Source of the DNA: Minisyncoccota bacterium
GTDB lineage: Bacteria; Patescibacteriota; Minisyncoccia; Phycocordibacterales; UBA9973
DNA length: 64,000 nucleotides
Direction: 5' to 3'
NCBI GenBank assembly: GCA_041662525.1
Contig: JBAZSF010000004.1
Span: 1,190 to 65,189 of the forward strand
The translations under genes and the position numbers were made by a program. Below are positions 11,713 through 62,759 of this stretch, piece after piece. A model generated the notes under the pieces. The model was not told where the DNA came from and did no database searches. It was given only the letters and a program-made list of their open reading frames with translations. Position 1 is the stretch's first letter. Each line of letters begins with the position of its first letter.

Positions 11713-11860
11713 TAAAAAAATCTAAAATAAACTTTTTCCGGTACGGATTTTTCGAAGCTTGAAAAATCTCTTCGAGCCTGAGGCCCTCAGAGCCGAAGGC
11801 CTGAAATTCTCGGCTCGACAGCCTCGAAACCCCTCCAAAAGCTTATTTTAGATTTTTTTA
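11713..11860 (+). mobile_element. MITE-like element, copy 1, with ~25-bp AT-rich terminal inverted repeats and a GC-rich structured core
   Basis: Left TIR taaaaaaatctaaaataaacttttt and right TIR caaaagcttattttagattttttta are near-perfect reverse complements. The core (ggtacggatttttcgaagcttgaaaaatct … ttctcggctcgacagcctcgaaacccct) recurs at 48961-49078. Inserted immediately after the lepA stop. Confidence 0.65.
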
Positions 11861-36325: not shown

Positions 36326-36400
36326 TCTATATATAAACATATAATTTTTACTTTGTCTAGAGGCTTTAAATTAGTATTTAAAGTTATTCACAGGAGAAGT
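36326..36400 (-). promoter_or_regulatory. Promoter/leader module, copy A (duplicated upstream of two adjacent minus-strand genes)
   Basis: ~70-bp segment (…aacatataattttta-ctttgtctagaggc-tttaaattagtatttaaagttattcacagga) homologous to 36706-36775. Contains the conserved CCYCTAGACAWAG box with a TCTAGA core. Confidence 0.5.
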
Positions 36401-36663: not shown

Positions 36664-36705
36664 AGCTTATCTCCTTTCATTTTAAGTATGGAATTTCTTT
36701 TTTAC

Positions 36706-36775
36706 ATCTAAACATATAATTTTTGCTATGTCTAGGGGCATTTAGTCAATATAAAGAGTTATCCACAGGGGAGGG
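36706..36775 (-). promoter_or_regulatory. Promoter/leader module, copy B
   Basis: Homologous to 36326-36400. In transcript sense it contains a TTGACT -35-like hexamer and the conserved CCCCTAGACATAG box. Confidence 0.5.
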
Positions 36776-48960: not shown

Positions 48961-49078
48961 CCAGATTTTTAAAATATCAATTTTTCTTCGGTACAGATTT
49001 TTTGAAGCTTAAAAAATCTTGAAGTTCTCGGCTCGACAGCCTCGAAACCCCTGCAAAAAATTATATTTTTAAAATCTA
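48961..49078 (+). mobile_element. MITE-like element, copy 2
   Basis: TIRs cagatttttaaaatatcaattttt / aaaaaattatatttttaaaatctag. Same core as copy 1 but lacking its 37-bp GC-rich segment. A compensatory C-G to T-A change in the agattttt[c/t]gaagctt[g/a]aaaaatct hairpin. Confidence 0.65.
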
Positions 49079-52115: not shown

Positions 52116-52146
52116 AAAAAGCCGGACAATCTGTCCGGCTTTTTAT
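52116..52146. terminator. Bidirectional Rho-independent terminator
   Basis: aaaaagccggacaatctgtccggcttttt. Confidence 0.85.
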
Positions 52147-52157
52147 AATTTGTCTAA

Positions 52158-53948
52158 TTAACAACCTACTCCCACTTTCCAAAATTCTATAGCTTGAAGA
52201 ATTAAGGAATTTAAAACATTGCCGATCTTCCATTGACCTATATAAGATAAAATTTCCGCATTACCAATAACACCATCGAGATTTGTGTCAGCTGTAGTTT
52301 GACAAGCAGGGCCGACCGCTGTCACGGTAACTATTGAAGCATTACTAGTTACTGCGTCTGAAGTCGCAGTGATGTTTGTCGTACCAGCAGCTACTGCTGT
52401 TACGAGACCCGTAGCACTCACTGTAGCTACTGCTGTATCAGAAGAATTCCAAGTCATCGCAGGTTGAGTCGCTAGAGCTACACTATTTTGATCTAAAGCA
52501 GAAGCTGATAGTTGAGAAGTACCTGCGACTACTATACTCGCTGTTGTTGGTGTGACTGAAATTGAAGTGAGGACGGGATTTGGGGTAATAGCCACCACAT
52601 TGACAGTCCTGGTAACCGACGTAGCTGGATTACCAGCGGCGTCAGAAACGTTGTAGGTCAAAATGTAACTCCCCAAAGTGGCTGTATCTACTGTACCGGT
52701 GACAATTATGTTGGCAGTGATATTGCCATCCACATCATCAGAAGCAGTGGCTCCTGGATCAGTGAAGACACTTGCTTGAACCACATCCACTGGGTTAGCT
52801 CCAAGTAATATAATGACTGGGAGAGTGGTGTCAGCAGGTGGTGAAACAGCTGTAATAATTATTGTGACTGGAGATGAAACTGGCGCTGATACCATGTCAT
52901 CAACAATTACATTAAAATTATAAGTTCCTGCTATGCTTGGGGTCCATGAAAATGTTCCCATGGCATTAATTGATGATCCAATAGGCGCATTCGCGTCAAG
53001 CGTATACATTAGCATTCCCTGATTTGGATTAGTGGCAATTACATCAAATGTTACTGCTTGCCCAACTGTTCCATTTTGTTGAGGTATTGGGGTTATGACT
53101 GGAGATGCTGCAAAGCTAGCGCTGATCGTATGAGCAATAGTAACGTTGGTGAAGGTGTAAGTCGCAACTGCGCCAACTGAAACTCCGTCCACCAAAACAT
53201 CCGCTACTACGAAATTAGTATTCGGAGTTATGGTGTAAGCTCTATTTGCTCCATGATTAACCGACGTCACTCCAAGAGGAGAAATTGTTCCGTTGGCGCC
53301 CGTCGAAGATGTAATGTTGTAAGTATTAATCGCGAAACTTGCATTGATCGTGTGAGTAGTTGTTACATTATTAAATGTATAATTTAAAACTGCTCCGACT
53401 GAAGATCCGTCAACTAAAACATTAGCTATATGATAACCGGTGTTTGGTGTAATTGTATAACTTTGACTTGATCCGGAGTTAACAGGGGTTGTTCCAGCTG
53501 GAGTAACTGTCCCTCCCGCGGTACTTGCAACTGAAACTATATTATGAGTTGTTGCTGTAGATGATATTACCAAATTTACGTTTGTTAACGGTTCAACAAC
53601 AAATGATCTGGTTACGTTTGTACTAAATGCTCCAAATGTCGCGTTTAATTGAATTTGATCTCCAGCAACGGTACAGATATTTAGGTTGCTTGTGTCGATC
53701 TGGTAAAATCCTCCCAAAGAGGTTACGACTGATAGTGCGGGGGATCCATTTGTAACGTCAGTAAGCGTGACAGTGGCATTATCAGTCGCTATACCATTAA
53801 ATGTAACTGTCCCATAAAATGTATTTAGCGGACATCCTTGAGCCGCAATAGCCGGGGTAGGCGAGATGAAAGCAAATTGCATTATCGCGGAAGCTACTAT
53901 CAAACTTACTATTTTTTTTATTGTATTTTTTGAGATATTTATGTTCAT
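52158..53948 (-). CDS. Secreted surface protein with Big_2 Ig-like domains and a Cys-flanked dockerin-like C-terminal module
   Basis: Signal peptide. Big_2-type segment (VLTSISVTPTTASIVVAGTSQLSA…). C-terminal CQTTADTNLDGVIGNAEILSYIGQWKIGNVLNSLILQAIEFWKVGVGC, almost identical to the C-terminus of the 60637-62598 protein. Confidence 0.6.
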   Translation of the reverse strand: MNINISKNTIKKIVSLIVASAIMQFAFISPTPAIAAQGCPLNTFYGTVTFNGIATDNATVTLTDVTNGSPALSVVTSLGGFYQIDTSNLNICTVAGDQIQLNATFGAFSTNVTRSFVVEPLTNVNLVISSTATTHNIVSVASTAGGTVTPAGTTPVNSGSSQSYTITPNTGYHIANVLVDGSSVGAVLNYTFNNVTTTHTINASFAINTYNITSSTGANGTISPLGVTSVNHGANRAYTITPNTNFVVADVLVDGVSVGAVATYTFTNVTIAHTISASFAASPVITPIPQQNGTVGQAVTFDVIATNPNQGMLMYTLDANAPIGSSINAMGTFSWTPSIAGTYNFNVIVDDMVSAPVSSPVTIIITAVSPPADTTLPVIILLGANPVDVVQASVFTDPGATASDDVDGNITANIIVTGTVDTATLGSYILTYNVSDAAGNPATSVTRTVNVVAITPNPVLTSISVTPTTASIVVAGTSQLSASALDQNSVALATQPAMTWNSSDTAVATVSATGLVTAVAAGTTNITATSDAVTSNASIVTVTAVGPACQTTADTNLDGVIGNAEILSYIGQWKIGNVLNSLILQAIEFWKVGVGC

Positions 53949-53999
53949 TTTTTTTATTAATTTTTTAATTGGTAAATATTTTTCGACTTTAAAATATTT

Positions 54000-56900
54000 T
54001 TATGGTCGGTGAATGAATATTCCATCACCTTGATTGATAATGAAATCATTCAATGGAAACCCGATTATATGGCTACTATATTGCTGTATTGCCGAGTCCC
54101 ATTTGGTAACAACATCAGTACCGGCAAGTGAAGCGCCAAAAGTTTCTGCCGTGGTTGATATTGCGCTGACCCATCCAAGAAGATTCCAGCCAGTTATGGG
54201 ATTATAAGTGGCTTGAGCTGGAGATCCTTGGAATACAAATGGACTAGCTGCTGGAACATTCACAAAGAAACCATCACCTATAGTAAGATTAAAGTTATTC
54301 AATGGAAATCCAACTATATGACTGCTGTATTTCTGTGTCAGAGAATCCCATTTTACAACGACCGTTGCACCGACTGTTTGTCCAAAGTTTTCCGCTGTTA
54401 ATGTCATAGGAGTCCCCTGAGCATCAAGCGGAGTTGCGGGTAGTGTAACTAAATTCCATCCATCGTTTAGTGAAAGCATATAACTTCCAGGAGGAAGATC
54501 TCCCGCTGTTACATTGGCAGTGTTGGAATATGTTGAATTAGCAGTTGCGGTAGGGAAGCCAATTGAGGGATCCGCGTATATTTGTGTATCGCCAACAACA
54601 TTATTGGCAAAAACTCTATAATAATATGTCTGCCCCGGTTGGATAGAATTATCCAAGTATGCGGTTGCATTAACCGGAGATGTGTAAGTTATCAATCCGC
54701 TCGTAAATCCAGAGTTGGTAGCTTTTTGAATTGTAAATCCAGTTTCACTTAATGAATTATCATTCCAATTTAACTGCACTGCATTAGAAGCAAAATTTGC
54801 TGTTAAATTTGAAGGAGCTTCCGGTGGAGTGGCGAATAAAACTGCATGCATCATATCCATTTCTTCATGCGCTAAGAGATGGCAGTGATAAACATATTCC
54901 CATCCATAGTTTACATAATGATTGTTTACTGTGACATTGTTTCCATTAGGATCTTTGAGTCCGCCAGGTGGTAGCATTAACGGCGCACCCTCAGGCAATG
55001 TGGGATCAATCAAGCGCACACTATTGGGAACTGGGAATGGTTGAGTTGGAGCAAATGCTCTGAAAGCAACTATGGTGTCTTGTAAAGGATTCACTCTAAA
55101 TGTTTCCTTCCACCCGAGTTCGTTGGCATCAGGCGGTCTTATAGCACCATCCCAGGCGACTCTGTTTATAAGCTGAGCATTAAACAGGTGGGTATGGATG
55201 GTATGAGTGTCTACACCATTGTGTGTAATTTTCCAGATTTGGGTGCCGTCATCAAGAGATCCTATCGGTGTTCCGTATACAGAGCCTTTGACGATTTCAA
55301 CTGGCGGAGAGGCAAAACCGGAAAGAATGAGTAATTGTCTGTTAACTTGTGATGCTGGAAGTTCAAGCCCGAGAAATCCACTCATTCTTCCGTATTCCGA
55401 ATCGAATGCTTCGCCCTGCTCATCTTGGATAGCTTTTGTTTGGAAAGGTATAGTGACATTATCACCGGCGAGAGTATTGAATGTTTTTGATGCGTCATGA
55501 ATACTGGCATAATTATCTGTTGTAATATTAGAATTATAAGCTGAATTATATGCAGTTTGCGGTATGATAACTTCATCCTGAGACACTTCGAAAACTCCGC
55601 GTTTTGTACCAGGTCCTTTGGCAAATACCGCTTCTAGTGCGCCTAGATTGTATGCAGTCGCTGGAGTGGTAGGCGCCACTCTGATTTGCATTACAGTTCT
55701 TATATTAGGACCGTAACCGGCTTGGGTTGTCGGAGCTCCGCCTATGTCTGTCAAATCCGGGTCTCCGGTATGATAATCATAACGAGCATCAGCGGCTGGA
55801 AATGCTGCCGGAGCATCGTTGTATAAAATAATTGTTTTGCCCGCGTACTGTGAAAAATCAACAATTACATCCGCTCGTTCAGCCGTACCAAGGATAAGAG
55901 TTCCTTTGTTAACTAATCCCATGTCAAAGTTTGTCGGGTCCATATTCCAGTCAACTGGTTGATTGGGCAATACTACCGGTGCTGGCAAGAATCCTCCTTC
56001 GGTTCCAATTTGAATAAATGTCGGACCTGCGGTTGTCGGATCAGGCACCCCTCCTTCTCGTCCATCTTTTGGCCAATCTTCCGGGAATCCGGGAGTAGAG
56101 ACAGCTGGTACCATTTTTATTTCCGTGTTTGTTCTGCCATCAGGGGTAATAATTGTCGGATCTGCAACATAGAACTGTAAATTAAGGAAACGATCATCTG
56201 CGGCATTTAAAATTCTAAATCTGTACGCTTTTGGGTCTACGTTCATATACGGATACACTGTTCCATTGACAATGGGAGTGTCCATAAAAGCTTCCATCGC
56301 CATAGACTCATTTGGTGTTCCAGGCATTTGAGCTGGTTCCCATGGTGCACCTACTGGATCATAATATGGATTTGGAAGCGGGCCTTGAGTTACCCCAGTT
56401 GTTGGTGGCCAAAACCATGGACCATAGTGCCATCTCCCAAAAGCATTCATTCCGCTGGGATCCGCAGGATTTTGGTTTGGCATATAAACGTGTGGGTACC
56501 AAAGATCGCCATCTTGGGGAACTCCTGGTACTGCTGAATCCCACGTTGGATCTTGCATCGCAAGAGTACTGGTATCAATAAATGTTCTATCTTGAATAAT
56601 TAACGGGATACCAATATCCGGAAGAACTTTCACCAACCCAGGGTTAACTCCGGAATCATTTGTTCCATTAATTAAATCTTGTTCTACTTGGTCGGTAATT
56701 AAATATCCAGCCGCTTCTCCTGCATAAACATTTAAACGGGTAATTCCAAAAGAATGATCATGATAGAACATCAATCTAGCACTTTGTTGGTTGTTATAGT
56801 AAAAAGTAAGTGAACCATCTCCAGGGTTATTTGTTGCTCCTGGGGTTGGCGCTGTAATTTGACCGACTGTGTCTGCGACTACACTGCCATTTACAAACCA

Positions 56901-57923
56901 CATGTCGGGAACATACTCAACACTCACACCTTTCGGATAAGATGTAGTTTCACCCGCCGGAGTAGTCCATTGATGAGGAGTTCCATCACTTATCCATGGA
57001 ACAAATCCTCCATGAAGGTGCAATGTTGCCCTATTTTCTTTGTACTCTTCTTTCATTCCAGGCATTCCCGGCATATCCAATGGACCCATACCGGCACCCA
57101 TTACTGATTTATCAACTGGCAAAAAAAGTTCTCCACCTGCTCCAGTTGGAAGTTTATTTGTAAATTTAATTCTTACAGCACGATCACGATTAGAAAGAAT
57201 TAGCGGACCAAGATAATGAATCGGATCCGGCGCAATCGTATTCTGGCTGTTGCCATCAGTACCTGAATTTACCTGTACATAACCGCGTAATTTTGTTGCC
57301 GGAAGATCGGAATGCATCTTTTCCGTATATTCCCTTAATTCAATTTCATAATAATCAGCTCCCGGATAAGTAATTGTATCCGGATGCGCTACTGGGATAT
57401 ATTGTCCAAGATTGTTGGCATTAGTTGAACCTAATCCTGGCAAAGAATCCACGAATTTTTTTATTCCTCCAGTTAATGTCGAGTATCCACTCCCACCATT
57501 GGTGATTGTAATTTCAGTAATGACACCGGCAGTTGTTGAAGCTGTTGCATTTGCTCCGGTTCCAGTAAGACTTGTGATTGCAACTATTGGAGAAATATAA
57601 TTTGTTCCTCCGTTAATAATTGATATTGCGGTAACAGCCCCATTAGTAATTGTTGCTGTTGCGATAGCTCCTGTAGCTCCGCTTGTTGTGTTTGAGTCTG
57701 TGATTGTTACAACAGTCGGTTCACCGACTGGCATAGGACTATTTGCCCAGTTTGGATAAGGACCAAAATAATGTGGAATCTCTCCGGTGTTGGGAATCGT
57801 CATCGCCATAGCAACTGTCGATTTTGCATATTTGATATTTTCAATCGGCAAAGCAACAAAAGAAAAAATAAAAGACAAAATTATAAAAATATTTCCTAAA
57901 TTTCTTAAATAATTATTTTTCAT
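54000..57923 (-). CDS. Giant secreted multicopper oxidase (laccase/CotA-like, three cupredoxin domains) with FN3 and tandem C-terminal repeat domains
   Basis: Signal peptide. All four MCO copper-ligand motifs are present: HLHGG, YHDHS, HTIHTHLF, HCHLLAHEEMDMM. An FN3-like segment and two about 90-aa C-terminal repeats (…KWDS…QYSSHI(V/I)GFPLN…GDG(F/I)F…). Confidence 0.75.
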   Translation of the reverse strand: MKNNYLRNLGNIFIILSFIFSFVALPIENIKYAKSTVAMAMTIPNTGEIPHYFGPYPNWANSPMPVGEPTVVTITDSNTTSGATGAIATATITNGAVTAISIINGGTNYISPIVAITSLTGTGANATASTTAGVITEITITNGGSGYSTLTGGIKKFVDSLPGLGSTNANNLGQYIPVAHPDTITYPGADYYEIELREYTEKMHSDLPATKLRGYVQVNSGTDGNSQNTIAPDPIHYLGPLILSNRDRAVRIKFTNKLPTGAGGELFLPVDKSVMGAGMGPLDMPGMPGMKEEYKENRATLHLHGGFVPWISDGTPHQWTTPAGETTSYPKGVSVEYVPDMWFVNGSVVADTVGQITAPTPGATNNPGDGSLTFYYNNQQSARLMFYHDHSFGITRLNVYAGEAAGYLITDQVEQDLINGTNDSGVNPGLVKVLPDIGIPLIIQDRTFIDTSTLAMQDPTWDSAVPGVPQDGDLWYPHVYMPNQNPADPSGMNAFGRWHYGPWFWPPTTGVTQGPLPNPYYDPVGAPWEPAQMPGTPNESMAMEAFMDTPIVNGTVYPYMNVDPKAYRFRILNAADDRFLNLQFYVADPTIITPDGRTNTEIKMVPAVSTPGFPEDWPKDGREGGVPDPTTAGPTFIQIGTEGGFLPAPVVLPNQPVDWNMDPTNFDMGLVNKGTLILGTAERADVIVDFSQYAGKTIILYNDAPAAFPAADARYDYHTGDPDLTDIGGAPTTQAGYGPNIRTVMQIRVAPTTPATAYNLGALEAVFAKGPGTKRGVFEVSQDEVIIPQTAYNSAYNSNITTDNYASIHDASKTFNTLAGDNVTIPFQTKAIQDEQGEAFDSEYGRMSGFLGLELPASQVNRQLLILSGFASPPVEIVKGSVYGTPIGSLDDGTQIWKITHNGVDTHTIHTHLFNAQLINRVAWDGAIRPPDANELGWKETFRVNPLQDTIVAFRAFAPTQPFPVPNSVRLIDPTLPEGAPLMLPPGGLKDPNGNNVTVNNHYVNYGWEYVYHCHLLAHEEMDMMHAVLFATPPEAPSNLTANFASNAVQLNWNDNSLSETGFTIQKATNSGFTSGLITYTSPVNATAYLDNSIQPGQTYYYRVFANNVVGDTQIYADPSIGFPTATANSTYSNTANVTAGDLPPGSYMLSLNDGWNLVTLPATPLDAQGTPMTLTAENFGQTVGATVVVKWDSLTQKYSSHIVGFPLNNFNLTIGDGFFVNVPAASPFVFQGSPAQATYNPITGWNLLGWVSAISTTAETFGASLAGTDVVTKWDSAIQQYSSHIIGFPLNDFIINQGDGIFIHRP

Positions 57924-58086
57924 ATATCTCTATATTAATTATTAATAATCGATTACTTTTTAGTATTAAAAAACTTACAAACTTAATAATAGTCAAACGA
58001 TAATAGCTGAAGTTAAATTTGACATTAAAGATTTTAAGGGCATTTTGATTTTTTAAAAAAATATTATTATTTCTGAGCAAAAAAAA

Positions 58087-58095
58087 GGGGGGGGG
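58087..58095. repeat. G9/C9 homopolymer in the MCO promoter region
   Basis: The only long G/C homopolymer seen in this AT-rich window. About 165 bp upstream of the MCO start, just downstream of the terminator of the preceding gene. Confidence 0.6.
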
Positions 58096-58114
58096 AGTCC
58101 TTGCTTAAAATAAC

Positions 58115-58146
58115 AAAAAACCGGAAGACTAGTCCGGTTTTTGTTA
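58115..58146. terminator. Rho-independent terminator after the PG-binding surface protein gene
   Basis: aaaaaaccggaagactagtccggtttttgtt. Confidence 0.8.
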
Positions 58147-58179
58147 TAACGTTTTTTTATAATTAAGACAGTTAATAAT

Positions 58180-60591
58180 TTATCTATTAAGTGCCGCGCG
58201 AGTGAGAGGTCCTACGATCCCATCGCCAATTAATCCATTCACTATTTGGAATTTAATGAGAGCCCCACCGGTTATTCTTCCAAATTTTCCATCAACCACT
58301 AGTGGACCATATTTGGTGTTGTTTAAGAACTTCTGAAGTTCCATAACTTCGTTTCCTATTGAGCCATTCCTAAGGAAAAGAGTAAAGAAGAATCTTTCAT
58401 CTCCGAGCACTTGACTTGTTCCAGTATTTCCAACACAAGATTGACCAGTAGTTACACTAAATCCAGTTGTTCTATTGCCACATCCAGGAATTGGTCCAGT
58501 ATTCCCAACACAAGATTGACCAGTAGTTACACTAAATCCAGTTGTTCTATCGCCACATCCAGGAATTGGTCCTCCTGTTCCAGTATTTCCAACACAAGAT
58601 TGACCAGTAGTTACACTAAATCCAGTTGCCCTATTGTCACATCCTGCAATTGGTCCTGTTGAAGCACCTAATACTTGGCCAATAAGGGGTCTTATAAAAC
58701 TACCGCCACCGCCTCCTCCACTAGATTGAGGCACTGCTGTCACCGTCACCAAAGTCGTTCCAGTCACTGCTCCACTAGTTGCGGTAACTGTGGTAGTTCC
58801 TACTGCGACTGCAGTAAACATTCCAGTGGTAGCATTAATCGTTCCGACTGCTAGATTAGAACTTGTCCAAGTGACAGTCGCTACAAATGGTGCTCCGTTT
58901 TGATCCAAAGTGGTAGCGGTCATTTGCTGAGTGTTTCCTACTACTACGGATGGGTTAGCTGGGTTAACAGTGATAGAAGTTAAAACTGGAACAGCCGTCA
59001 CCGTCACCAAAGTCGTTCCAGTCACTGCTCCACTAGTTGCGGTAACTGTGGTAGTTCCTACTGCGACTGCAGTAAACATTCCAGTGGTAGCATTAATCGT
59101 TCCGACTGCTGGATTGGAGCTTGTCCAAGAAACAGTGGCTGCGATTGGTGCTCCGTTTTGATCTAAAGTAGTTGCTGTCATTTGCTGAGTATTCCCAACC
59201 GTGACAGAAGGAGTAGTGGGGGTGACGTTGATGGTGGTGAGGACGGGGGTTGGGGCTGCCGTTACCGTCACTGACGTACCACCTAAAATTGGTACTTCTG
59301 TTACACCATTAGAATCAAAAGCGAATGTGCCAGAAAATGTACTTACTCCCGAAGCTGTTCCTGGGATAGCAAGTGTGTATTGTCTTGTACCTGAAGCAGC
59401 TCCAGTTAATTCAAGCCATCGAATGTGTCCACCAGCGATGGTTCCTGTACCAGAGAGGTCTGTGGCGACCCAACCAGCAGGGAATATTTCATCGATGAGA
59501 ACAGTTCCGTTTGCATCGGCTGGATCAACAGCAGAAGTCAAAGTTACGGTGATGACTGTTCCGGCAGTTGGAGTAGCATTACTGAAACTGCGGGTGACGG
59601 TGGAATTTACCACCACTGGTGCTGTCACTGTCACCAAAGTAGTCCCTGTCACTGCGCCACTTGTAGCGGTGATAGTCGTGGTTCCTACTGCGACTGCAGT
59701 AAACATTCCAGTGGTAGCATTAATCGTTCCGACTGCTGGATTGGAGCTTGTCCAAGAAACAGTGGCTGCGATTGGTGCTCCGTTTTGATCTAAAGTAGTT
59801 GCGGTCATTTGCTGAGTATTCCCAACCGTGACAGAAGGAGTAGCGGGGGTGACGTTGATGGTGGTGAGGACGGGGGTTGCTGTCACTGTAATTACTGAAA
59901 TATTACTGGTCACTGCCCCTGAGGTCGCTGTAATATTTGTTGTACCAACAGAAACCGCAGTCACTAAACCAGTCGCACTAACTGTGGCTACTGCGGGATT
60001 GGATGAGTTCCAAGTCATCACAGGTTGAGGGGACATTGCTACCGCATTTTGATCTAAAGCAGAAGCACTTAATTGAGAAGTGCCTGCGACTACCAAACTA
60101 GCTGTTGTTGGAGTTAAGTTTATTGAAGTAAGTACTGGCGTAACAATTACTGCTGTCACTGTCACCGATGTATCACCAAGAATTGGTACTTCCGTTGCAC
60201 CATTAGAGTTAAAAGCGAATGTGCCAGAAAATGTACTTACTCCCGAAGCTGTTCCTGGGATAGCAAGTGTGTATTGTCTTGTACCTGAAGCAGCTCCAGT
60301 TAATTCAAGCCATCGAATGTGTCCACCAGCGATGGTTCCTGTACCAGAGAGGTCTGTGGCGACCCAACCAGCAGGGAATATTTCATCGATGAGAACAGTT
60401 CCGTTTGCATCGGCTGGATCAACAGCAGAAGTCAAAGTTACGGTGATGACTGTTCCGGCAGTTGGAGTAGCATTACTGAAACTGCGGGTGACGGTGGAGG
60501 CGTCAGCGGCCTGAGCACCAATTCCCACAAAGAAAGCAATTACTGCCACTACCATTCCTATTTTTTTAATTATTGATTTTAAGTATTTCAT
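58180..60591 (-). CDS. Surface scaffold-like protein: duplicated novel ~110-aa domain, four Big_2 domains, three Cys-repeats and a C-terminal peptidoglycan-binding (PG_binding_1-like) domain
   Basis: Signal peptide. Novel domain (STVTRSFSNATPTAG…GTFAF) present twice. Repeated Big_2 domains. Gly-rich linker. 3x GC(D/G)xR(A/T)TGFSVTTGQSCVGNTG. C-terminal …KFLNN…VDGKFGRITGGALIKFQ…GLIGDGIVGPLT…. Confidence 0.65.
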   Translation of the reverse strand: MKYLKSIIKKIGMVVAVIAFFVGIGAQAADASTVTRSFSNATPTAGTVITVTLTSAVDPADANGTVLIDEIFPAGWVATDLSGTGTIAGGHIRWLELTGAASGTRQYTLAIPGTASGVSTFSGTFAFNSNGATEVPILGDTSVTVTAVIVTPVLTSINLTPTTASLVVAGTSQLSASALDQNAVAMSPQPVMTWNSSNPAVATVSATGLVTAVSVGTTNITATSGAVTSNISVITVTATPVLTTINVTPATPSVTVGNTQQMTATTLDQNGAPIAATVSWTSSNPAVGTINATTGMFTAVAVGTTTITATSGAVTGTTLVTVTAPVVVNSTVTRSFSNATPTAGTVITVTLTSAVDPADANGTVLIDEIFPAGWVATDLSGTGTIAGGHIRWLELTGAASGTRQYTLAIPGTASGVSTFSGTFAFDSNGVTEVPILGGTSVTVTAAPTPVLTTINVTPTTPSVTVGNTQQMTATTLDQNGAPIAATVSWTSSNPAVGTINATTGMFTAVAVGTTTVTATSGAVTGTTLVTVTAVPVLTSITVNPANPSVVVGNTQQMTATTLDQNGAPFVATVTWTSSNLAVGTINATTGMFTAVAVGTTTVTATSGAVTGTTLVTVTAVPQSSGGGGGGSFIRPLIGQVLGASTGPIAGCDNRATGFSVTTGQSCVGNTGTGGPIPGCGDRTTGFSVTTGQSCVGNTGPIPGCGNRTTGFSVTTGQSCVGNTGTSQVLGDERFFFTLFLRNGSIGNEVMELQKFLNNTKYGPLVVDGKFGRITGGALIKFQIVNGLIGDGIVGPLTRAALNR

Positions 60592-60636
60592 ATTTTTTAT
60601 TTTATTATTTTTAATTTTGATAATTTTTCGACACTT

Positions 60637-62598
60637 TTAACACCCTACTCCCACTTTCCAAAATCCTATGGCTTGAAGAATTAAGGAATTTAAAACATTA
60701 CCAAGTTTCCATTGACCTATGTAAGATAAAATTTCTACGTTGCCAATAATTCCATCGAGATTAGTGTCAGCTGCAGTTTGGCAAACTGCAGCAGTGGTAA
60801 CAGTAATTGCTGAAGTTCCCTCGACCGTAATTACTCCATCAATTGCAGTAGCTGTAATCGTGACAGTGCCAGGAGCGATCGCAGTAACTAATCCTGAACC
60901 ATCAACAGTGGCAATAGCATTATCACCTGAAGACCAATTTATTGTTGGTTGAGGAACTAAAGCATTTCCAAATTGATCCAAGGCTGATGCTGAAAGTTGT
61001 TGAGTTAATCCTGTATTTATCGAAGCAGTGGTTGGAGTGACATTTAACCCAGATAAAATAGTGACAGCGAGAGAATGATCGATCGTTGTGGAATTACTTC
61101 CATCAGTAGCTGTAATAGGGATATTAAATAATCCTGCTCTGTCCAAATTTGGTAGAATAAGCGACCAGGTACCGTCTGTTTCAGATCCAGCATTTCTAAT
61201 CATGTTTACTATGTTTGGAGTAGGAATTATTTGCCCACGAATTTCACCGTTTGAAAATAGAGTGGTGTGTATATTTACATAAGTTCTCCCAGCTAAAATT
61301 TCTGCTTCTATTTCTTCAGGATAATTCCAGGTTCCATTTGCTGGAAGTGTAGTTCCTAGATCAAAAGTAATTGCTGAATTTTGACCCAAAGCTCCGTTTG
61401 GAGGAACAACAGATCCATGAATATGCATTCCGGTGATTGATCCACCTTGCAAACCCGAAGCACTAATATTATAAGTTAATGTATTTGCATTTGTATCAAT
61501 AGTAAATGTTCCGGATCCTGTTGCTGTACTAGTGGTTGCAGGAACTTCTTGTGTTTTATTAAGAGTAGCAGTAAAGGTGTTGCTTAGTGCCCCCAAATCA
61601 GCGGTAACTCCAATCACCCTCAGATCATCAGTAACGTTTGCGCTTAAAACAACATTATTAGAACCAAGTGGTACAGAAGCAGGTGCAGTAGAAACTATGG
61701 TTGGAGCGATGGTGTCAACAACCGCGATACGTCCAGTAACAGTAAATAAATTTTCTTGAATGAAACCGGCACCAGCAAAACTTGTTGCGGGGCCCTCAAT
61801 TCTTATAAAGTTTTGTCCAACAGGGCTACCAGTAATAGCGTGCGGTATATTTGGATTACCAATATATCTTTTGGTTGGATTCTGAGCGTTGACCAAGAGA
61901 GGATCCGACAAAGCTGGATTTAGATTGAACGTGTCCCAAGTCAAGAACGGTCCGATACCACTGTTAAGAGTAAGAATAGGATCACAAATGGCTATACCTG
62001 GAACACCAGCACAACCGATATCAGACGAATCATTGATTTCTGGAGCTCCCGGATCTATTACGTCCACGACATAAGTTTTTGTACCGAAAGGATGTCTGAT
62101 GGTGTATGTTCCGGGCACATCTACATCGTATCTGTGTCTGATGCGACCAAAAATAGATTCACTACCCTCAACCGTTCCACCGAGATAAGCAACCTCTAAA
62201 GCTAAAATGGTCTTACTGACAGAGCCGGCAGGATTAACTGGGATAGCGTCAGCCGTCCAGTAGAATCCTTCGCCCGAAAATCCGAGTTCTGCGGAAAAAT
62301 CATTTCCACCCTGAATCGGCCCTGAGATACCGAAACCGTCGATGGCTTCCATGATCTCAATCGCAAGACCGTTCTGGTCCATAAACCATGCAGGTAAACT
62401 CTTACCAATACCTGCAGTTACAATAGGACCAGCCATTCCACCAGGCACGAATGCCGCTTGGGAGACGTTCGCGCTAAACAATAAAGCAAACACAAAAACA
62501 CCAGTCAAAAGAGATGCGCTATATTTATATTTAACCTTTTTATTCATTCTCGCTATTAATAAAACGTATAATAATTTTTGTATGATTGTTTTTTTCAT
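60637..62598 (-). CDS. Secreted surface protein with CHRD-like and Big_2 domains and the shared dockerin-like C-terminal module
   Basis: Signal peptide. CHRD-like segment (…LTYNISASGLQGGSITGMHIHG…). Big_2. C-terminal CQTAADTNLDGIIGNVEILSYIGQWKLGNVLNSLILQAIGFWKVGVGC. Confidence 0.6.
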   Translation of the reverse strand: MKKTIIQKLLYVLLIARMNKKVKYKYSASLLTGVFVFALLFSANVSQAAFVPGGMAGPIVTAGIGKSLPAWFMDQNGLAIEIMEAIDGFGISGPIQGGNDFSAELGFSGEGFYWTADAIPVNPAGSVSKTILALEVAYLGGTVEGSESIFGRIRHRYDVDVPGTYTIRHPFGTKTYVVDVIDPGAPEINDSSDIGCAGVPGIAICDPILTLNSGIGPFLTWDTFNLNPALSDPLLVNAQNPTKRYIGNPNIPHAITGSPVGQNFIRIEGPATSFAGAGFIQENLFTVTGRIAVVDTIAPTIVSTAPASVPLGSNNVVLSANVTDDLRVIGVTADLGALSNTFTATLNKTQEVPATTSTATGSGTFTIDTNANTLTYNISASGLQGGSITGMHIHGSVVPPNGALGQNSAITFDLGTTLPANGTWNYPEEIEAEILAGRTYVNIHTTLFSNGEIRGQIIPTPNIVNMIRNAGSETDGTWSLILPNLDRAGLFNIPITATDGSNSTTIDHSLAVTILSGLNVTPTTASINTGLTQQLSASALDQFGNALVPQPTINWSSGDNAIATVDGSGLVTAIAPGTVTITATAIDGVITVEGTSAITVTTAAVCQTAADTNLDGIIGNVEILSYIGQWKLGNVLNSLILQAIGFWKVGVGC

Positions 62599-62759
62599 AT
62601 TTTATTTAATATTTATAATATTAGTAATAATCAAACAATAATAGATAAAGTTAAATTTAATATTAACAATATAAAGGACATAAAAAACGTCAAGGACATT
62701 TTGATTAATCCTTCCTAAAGTATTACTATGTATAGTACTGATCGGATGTTTTTATTTAT

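Follow-up and report, generated by a model that had tools for sequence, protein, structure and literature searches.

The DNA examined here, hereafter the window, is a 64,000-nucleotide (nt) stretch of contig JBAZSF010000004.1 (positions 1,190 to 65,189, forward strand; GenBank assembly GCA_041662525.1) from an uncultured Minisyncoccota bacterium (Paceibacteria), a member of the candidate phyla radiation (CPR). Its minus strand carries at 58180-60591 a single gene whose product is predicted to be a modular surface protein; this gene, the long repeats within it and the process that has probably kept them identical are the subject of the present analysis. An exact-match scan of the entire 64 kb retrieved nine direct repeats of at least 30 nt, and 9/9 are located inside this gene. 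The encoded protein is organized as a signal peptide, two consecutive [X, Big_2, Big_2] blocks (X being a domain considered below), a glycine hinge, three cysteine modules and a PG_binding_1 domain. The features of the gene and its exact tracts are as follows:

58180-60591, minus strand: intact open reading frame (ORF) of 803 amino acids (aa), predicted secreted, peptidoglycan-tethered modular surface protein (ORF list and Pfam)
60502-60591, minus strand: putative signal peptide, aa 1-30, ...GIGAQA/AD (recognised by reading the sequence, without a predictor)
60148-60501, minus strand: domain X copy 1 (X1), aa 31-148, first after the signal peptide (exhaustive search, AlphaFold2 and Foldseek)
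60211-60498, minus strand: exact 288-bp tract of X1, identical to 59317-59604 in X2, offset 894 nt or 298 codons (exact-match scan)
59878-60138, minus strand: Big_2 copy a, aa 152-238, divergent type (Pfam and alignment)
59620-59877, minus strand: Big_2 copy b, aa 239-324, 'GNTQQM' type (Pfam and alignment)
59254-59607, minus strand: domain X copy 2 (X2), aa 329-446 (tblastn and alignment)
59317-59604, minus strand: exact 288-bp tract of X2, identical to 60211-60498 in X1 (exact-match scan)
58993-59250, minus strand: Big_2 copy c, aa 448-533, chimera (exact-match scan and alignment)
59054-59175, minus strand: exact 122-bp tract of Big_2 c, identical to 59681-59802 in Big_2 b (exact-match scan)
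58735-58992, minus strand: Big_2 copy d, aa 534-619 (alignment)
58739-58852, minus strand: exact 114-bp tract of Big_2 d, identical to 58997-59110 in Big_2 c (exact-match scan; p < 5e-6)
58657-58734, minus strand: Gly-rich (Gly6) hinge, VPQSSGGGGGGSFIRPLIGQVLGAST (translation)
58420-58656, minus strand: three tandem mini-modules, predicted to be Cys-closed (repeat analysis and translation)
58189-58356, minus strand: PG_binding_1 domain, aa 746-801, predicted non-covalent wall tether (Pfam PF01471, E = 3.8e-11)
58116-58142, minus strand: terminator-like hairpin followed by a T-run, directly 3' of the stop codon

Big_2 (PF02368) was recovered by Pfam in four stretches with 168.9 bits (gathering threshold 22.8; E = 2e-50), and PG_binding_1 with 43.4 bits (gathering threshold 23), profile positions 2-57 out of 57 being covered. 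Such a domain content suggests that the protein is Sec-secreted, anchored to the cell wall and located at the surface. The core of the gene is an 894-bp tandem super-repeat, [X, Big_2, Big_2], whose two units (58735-59604 and 59620-60498) are 79.7% identical over 882 nt (blastn). Plus-strand ORFs predicted within the gene (e.g. 59201-59788) were rejected as by-products of its Thr/Ala/Val/Gly-rich repeat composition. Similarly, the GC content of the gene (47%) is elevated because of its Thr/Ala/Gly/Val codons; foreign origin or GC-biased conversion was rejected as its cause, the GC content at third codon positions (GC3, 0.30) being typical for the genome.

The repeats had been recognised in an original prediction, the coordinates of which required partial revision. 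A 289-bp exact repeat was proposed between the two X copies; this stands in essence, but the maximal match is 288 bp long, as position 59605 differs from 60499. The two domain copies, announced as identical, are so over 96 aa (aa 32-127 and 330-425), with four residue differences in the last ~20 aa. An exact 165-bp repeat linking 58994-59158 to 59621-59785 proved incorrect: these segments differ by 13 mismatches, all confined to 58996-59053, and the true exact tracts are those of 122 and 114 bp listed above. One portion of the 122-bp tract (59054-59110) has the same letters in Big_2 b, c and d. Conversely, the three tandem Cys-encoding units of ~75 bp were readily retrieved (58417-58500, 58492-58575 and 58576-58659; spacing 75 and 84 nt; 93% identity), and the repeats do reside within a PG-binding surface protein encoded by one intact ORF.

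Identity between module copies is distributed as a mosaic. Error-free tracts adjoin homologous tracts in which 20-29% of the positions differ, mostly synonymously, and a permutation test on the longest identical run between copies yielded p values from 3e-4 to < 5e-6. X1 and X2 display no difference over 288 nt (p < 5e-6), whereas 59254-59316, the 63 nt that follow within this domain, contain 14 differences, with seven synonymous and four non-synonymous codons; the tract and the tail of X therefore differ in age. Big_2 b and c differ at 2 positions over 199 nt (p = 3e-4) and at 14 over the next 60 nt, the sole non-synonymous changed codon being I>V. Big_2 c and d are identical over 114 nt, as opposed to 40 differences in the remaining 140 nt (p < 5e-6). 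Big_2 c is chimeric: b-like over its 5' two-thirds, it is d-like in its 3' part. Nor does identity follow the register of the super-repeat: the in-register partners a/c and b/d are 58% and 81% identical, respectively, versus 94% for the out-of-register pair b/c. In other parts of the gene, tracts coding for nearly the same peptide show ~20% base differences, at synonymous sites; in the unconverted tracts, the b/c comparison counts 13 synonymous and two non-synonymous codons. Given this heavy synonymous divergence of same-peptide tracts, selection at the protein level cannot explain the perfect nucleotide identity; the same divergence in the unconverted tracts indicates that the modules themselves are old.

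A scan of GTDB genomes identified a sole full-length relative of the gene, on contig JBAZSZ010000001.1 from a Candidatus Paceibacterota (hereafter L001), where the upstream CHRD-domain gene and a spacer of 45-46 nt are also kept. The L001 protein (1099 aa) possesses two X copies with a 344-nt exact tract in common, two Cys units, five Big_2 domains, a DUF5011-like cassette and two InlB-B-repeat-like cassettes. The X copies are 95-100% identical within each genome, versus 59% (nt) and 54% (aa) between the window and L001. The Big_2, Cys and PG-binding parts of the two proteins are 74-91% identical (83-91% for Big_2 alone), and X is the fastest-diverging part of these orthologs. The Big_2 copies of L001, obtained in an independent assembly, are likewise mosaic, with identical runs of 154 and 185 nt (p ≤ 3e-5). 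Throughout the X family, copies from the same protein are almost always mutual nearest relatives (62-100% identity). Since L001 shares the two-copy layout, with copies alike within and 59% identical between the genomes, these patterns point to the homogenisation of older copies.

We consider it likely that the exact repeats are intragenic recombination tracts between pre-existing paralogous modules of one intact surface-protein gene. The process would be gene conversion, possibly with unequal crossing-over, acting repeatedly and resulting in concerted evolution. No fewer than three events, differing in age, would be recorded, in the X core (288 nt, no difference), in Big_2 b/c (199 nt, two differences) and in Big_2 c/d (114 nt, no difference), and these conversion tracts would overlie the older 894-bp super-repeat, the two units of which are ~80% identical overall. 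The repeat offsets (894, 627, 258, 84 and 75 nt) are all multiples of three, and recombination between the tracts would therefore yield longer or shorter proteins in frame. A crossover between X1 and X2, for example, would leave one X and two Big_2 domains in a product of 505 aa, and the same recombination could delete or add modules without disturbing the reading frame.

The original prediction had taken exact repeats of this length as a sign of very recent duplication, i.e. of an X or X-Big_2 block copied too recently for any substitution to have accumulated. Zero differences over 288 nt in the window and 344 nt in L001 are in line with this; moreover, the exact tract of L001 spans the whole X domain and stops where homology stops, which suits a fresh duplication in that genome, and the clustering of same-protein copies in the family tree is also expected from repeated lineage-specific duplication. 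However, X homology in the window continues for 63 divergent nucleotides beyond the exact tract, implying two ages within one domain, and neither the higher identity of the out-of-register Big_2 pair nor the chimeric nature of Big_2 c is anticipated from a single copying event. The matching layout of L001, whose X copies are as distant from those of the window as stated above, would in addition need parallel duplications. We thus regard a single very recent duplication as unlikely, and intragenic gene conversion or unequal crossing-over fits the data better. 

An origin of the pattern in assembly or polishing, through collapsed bubbles or mis-joins that made merely similar copies identical or altered the order or number of modules, has also to be weighed, as repeats of 114-288 nt are longer than typical k-mer sizes. 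The warning of an assembly hazard in the original prediction was indeed justified: the protein has a single other record among 5.8 billion clusters, a fragment of 299 aa with 100% identity, encoded on a 21.6-kb contig of an independent Joint Genome Institute (JGI) assembly and starting at aa 505, inside the Big_2 stretch that is identical in b, c and d. The cluster of this fragment has no further member, and the N-terminal part of the gene product was not found in any protein of these clusters. L001, for its part, derives from a low-coverage short-read assembly. Nevertheless, the ORF is intact with every domain boundary in frame, the JGI fragment reproduces exactly the C-terminal 299 aa (copy d, part of c and the three Cys units), and the same mosaic is present in another genome and assembly (L001). 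Bubble-popping may erase a few differences but cannot create a contrast between 0% and 20-29%, and an artefact accordingly appears improbable. Hardly credible at all is the idea that, with no recombination involved, the tracts stay identical through selection on the nucleotide sequence itself, be it on mRNA structure, on codon usage or on an element embedded there. It is raised solely because the identity is perfect, and no point in its support was found, whereas other same-peptide tracts tolerate synonymous differences at ~20% of their bases, the GC3 of the gene is ordinary, Rfam finds only tRNAs in the window and the opposite-strand ORFs are the compositional by-products mentioned above.

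Several points weigh against recombination between old modules as the explanation, or limit its reach. The comparison involves one full-length ortholog, and a small probability remains with lineage-independent duplications of X combined with one conversion in the lineage of the window; even with independent duplications, the two-age structure of X in the window calls for at least one conversion-type event. The L001 contig is, by its name, a SPAdes product of 4.7x coverage. Bubble-popping or polishing in the assembler could inflate the exactness of the tracts, and 'exact' is best taken to mean that differences are very few at most. Copy-number variation between strains is a prediction: strain-level relatives of the gene were found neither in the genome scan nor in the metagenome scan, and the latter yielded only a cytochrome-b5/Big_2 paralog family (L042) and one X-bearing contig that is distant (L043). 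Finally, that the protein is surface-exposed, binds the wall or mediates adhesion is deduced from domain content and is best regarded as predicted.

Domain X had been presented as a novel 110-aa domain, a view that could not be maintained. A word-index homolog search revealed no relatives of X; an exhaustive HMMER search, on the other hand, recovered 566 cluster representatives at E ≤ 1e-3 (50% clustering), i.e. at least 566 relatives. Many of these proteins, from bacteria as well as archaea, possess 2-19 X copies. Against Pfam DUF11 (PF01345), X scores 13.9 bits (E = 0.069), below the gathering threshold of 24.6, and 17/55 members of the X family reach E < 0.01 (best, 1.1e-5). AlphaFold2 modelled X with a predicted local distance difference test score of 95.9 when provided with a 55-sequence alignment, versus 47 from the single sequence. 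The best Foldseek match of this model by template modelling score (TM, 0.78; root-mean-square deviation of 2.7) was 9ifr, a CLIPPER (renamed DUF11) domain from an Acinetobacter fibrillar adhesin (bioRxiv 10.1101/2025.04.25.650565). Type I cohesins were also matched (E ~5e-5, TM ~0.6); neither X nor its profile matched a cohesin in the Pfam or PDB sequence searches, the resemblance being one of fold only. According to the model, X is an outlying branch of the DUF11/CLIPPER superfamily with a CnaA-like β-sandwich, and no new fold. 

A Lys-Asn isopeptide bond with a catalytic Asp is not universal among DUF11/CLIPPER domains (bioRxiv 10.1101/2025.04.25.650565). Judging from the sequence, the isopeptide Lys/Asn pair is missing in X: the window copy contains no Lys, and the family has no conserved Lys or Asn columns and an invariant Arg at position 6, in strand 1. 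The first domain behind the signal peptide is X in nearly all related proteins; Big_2 or other Ig-like domains come next, and then PG_binding_1 or a C-terminal transmembrane anchor. This architecture agrees with the fibrillar-adhesin pattern of tip domain, repetitive stalk and anchor, and would place the fast-evolving X at the distal tip. An adhesive role of X is suggested by this layout; binding of X to any partner is a prediction.

The Cys modules between hinge and wall tether are 16 residues long (C-x2-R-x-TGFS-V-TTGQSC; C651-C666, C679-C694 and C704-C719, 28 and 25 aa apart) and are presumably closed by disulfides. A search with the C-terminal 179 aa returned 54 proteins, all source-named ones of which belong to Paceibacterota/Nomurabacteria. 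The module occurs in them 0-3 times before PG_binding_1, and its general pattern can be written as C-x2-R-x-TGFS-x-TTG-x-SC. No match to the Cys module was detected in Pfam. The only NCBIfam row for the Cys region, an OXA-22-family β-lactamase (E = 0.52), is insignificant and was dismissed as a chance match.

The gene invites comparison with several known systems. Periscope proteins contain folded-domain repeats with very high DNA identity, for which homologous recombination was proposed as the driver, and their genes are not resolved by short-read assemblies (PMC8201768, PMC9704523). As is predicted for the protein described here, the periscope proteins SasG/Aap, Rib/Alpha C and the SHIRT arrays of Sgo_0707 are single wall-attached chains with a C-terminal tether and a presumed N-terminal functional domain. 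Tandem pairs or triples do occur in the window (Big_2 c/d, 84% identical; Cys units, 93%). Unlike in these arrays, however, there are two or three copies per module type in the window, the X copies are interspersed, the most identical pair (X) is not adjacent, and the super-repeat is ~80% identical overall with embedded exact tracts. Moreover, the predicted tether is PG_binding_1, non-covalent instead of LPXTG, and the host is a CPR bacterium. Periscope repeat number varies between strains; the difference seen here is that with the species-level ortholog of L001. In Helicobacter pylori cagY, many intragenic direct repeats recombine, always in frame, in a gene for a surface-exposed protein (PMC2194252). 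cagY nonetheless encodes a type IV secretion component, its repeats are much more numerous as well as shorter, and that they rearrange was demonstrated by experiment; what the window offers is the in-frame geometry.

Resemblances are also found at the level of individual parts. The DUF11/CLIPPER domains of fibrillar adhesins share with X the CnaA-like β-sandwich and are, like X, present more than once, also in tandem, in surface proteins, but X of the window scores below threshold, is devoid of the isopeptide pair, and is located at the tip after the signal peptide instead of in the stalk. Big_2-type Ig-like stalks characterize the Leptospira Lig proteins and the intimin/invasin Big arrays, and NCBIfam reports a weak intimin match for the protein of the window. 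In Lig/intimin-type Big arrays, identity among copies is mosaic and has been attributed to recombination. Their anchors are however a lipoprotein or an outer-membrane β-barrel and their hosts differ, such that membership is not claimed. Finally, cellulosomal scaffoldins come to mind: the fold of X resembles that of type I cohesins, the protein is apparently wall-anchored with two identical X modules, and its neighbours carry a module with a calcium-binding-type loop (Ca-loop module). Unlike in scaffoldins, no cohesin or dockerin sequence match is above threshold, and the Ca-loop module consists of one loop, closed by two Cys, and not of a duplicated dockerin segment.

The repeat gene is part of a minus-strand island (52158-62598) of four genes encoding secreted modular proteins, namely a 596-aa Ig-domain protein, a 1307-aa multicopper-oxidase-like protein, the repeat protein and a CHRD protein. 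Big_2 a (59879-60138) is 77% (nt) and 82% (aa) identical to a Big_2 of the 596-aa gene (52318-52577). The DUF5011-like and InlB-B-repeat-like cassettes, which in L001 are situated inside the ortholog of the repeat gene, are in the window found in the 596-aa gene (window 52158-53948 versus L001 6001-9300). A small secreted protein with one 'GNTQQM'-type Big_2 and an acidic tail is encoded on two other Paceibacterota contigs (L010, 5770-6516; L042, 2196-2951); its Big_2 is 72-78% identical (nt) to the copies of the repeat gene, and its N-terminal region is, we assume, cytochrome-b5-like. The presence of the 'GNTQQM' Big_2 cassette in this protein indicates that it circulates among unrelated genes. 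The 1307-aa secreted protein (54000-57923, minus strand) has weak multicopper-oxidase and fn3 matches, and a ~80-aa C-terminal segment is duplicated in it (54022-54104 versus 54271-54353, 73% nt identity). An AT-rich element of ~70 nt is found upstream of both the multicopper-oxidase-like and CHRD genes (57975-58043 and 62613-62681; 78% identical) and could be a shared promoter or leader. The sole G9/C9 homopolymer of the window (58087-58095, C9 and then T8 on the minus strand; chance expectation 0.11 per window) sits between the terminator of the repeat gene and the AT-rich element that precedes the multicopper-oxidase-like gene, and might act as a slipped-strand switch. Outside the island, short dispersed repeats pair 36328-36397 with 36703-36772 (70 nt, 79%) and 11802-11849 with 49020-49067 (48 nt, 90%).

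The 596-aa and CHRD proteins both end in the Ca-loop module, 48 aa long, with two Cys and an EF-hand-type loop (D-T-N-L-D-G-x-I-G-N-x-E). This module (CQTAADTNLDGIIGNVEILSYIGQWK...FWKVGVGC) is encoded at 52161-52304 and 60640-60783 on the minus strand of the window. Further copies are present in L001 (3664-3807 and 5808-5951, in two neighbours) and in an X-bearing protein of L043 (1065-1226). The L001 counterpart of the 1307-aa protein ends in a Cys-closed Ca-loop module in place of the duplicated segment. The two window copies are 85% identical (nt), and the likeness extends beyond the stop codons (52140-52305 versus 60615-60784). All matches of the module to known families are weak (EF-hand, E ~1e-3; GC-type dockerin, E = 0.026; calmodulin loops in PDB), and the module is rare, a profile search having added one further protein. 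Between the two species, aa identity is 54% for X, 58-62% for the Ca-loop module and 83-91% for the stalk domains.

The cohesin-like fold of X makes a docking arrangement conceivable, in which the X domains of a scaffold anchored to the wall would serve, in the manner of cohesins, as docking sites for the Ca-loop modules of the neighbours. The clients would be the 596-aa and CHRD proteins in the window, and would include the multicopper-oxidase-like protein in L001. We regard this scenario as a long shot. If it were true, Paceibacteria would possess a miniature cohesin-dockerin-like display system, and concerted evolution might be selected for keeping the specificity of both docking sites alike while X and the Ca-loop module co-diverge.

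Recombining modules are a familiar behaviour of bacterial surface proteins, and the lineage in which they are encountered here has been little studied. Experiments have taught us next to nothing about the surface proteins with which CPR bacteria (Patescibacteria) meet their hosts or surfaces, and the locus provides a well-resolved example of such a gene. It brings forward three modules that are uncurated in Pfam, namely the X branch of DUF11/CLIPPER, the presumably Cys-closed TGFS/TTG mini-module and the C-terminal Ca-loop module, and documents a point at which short-read metagenome assemblies break. The putative tip domain X diverges fast between species and is yet uniform within the gene, a pattern that would be expected of a binding module under changing selection.

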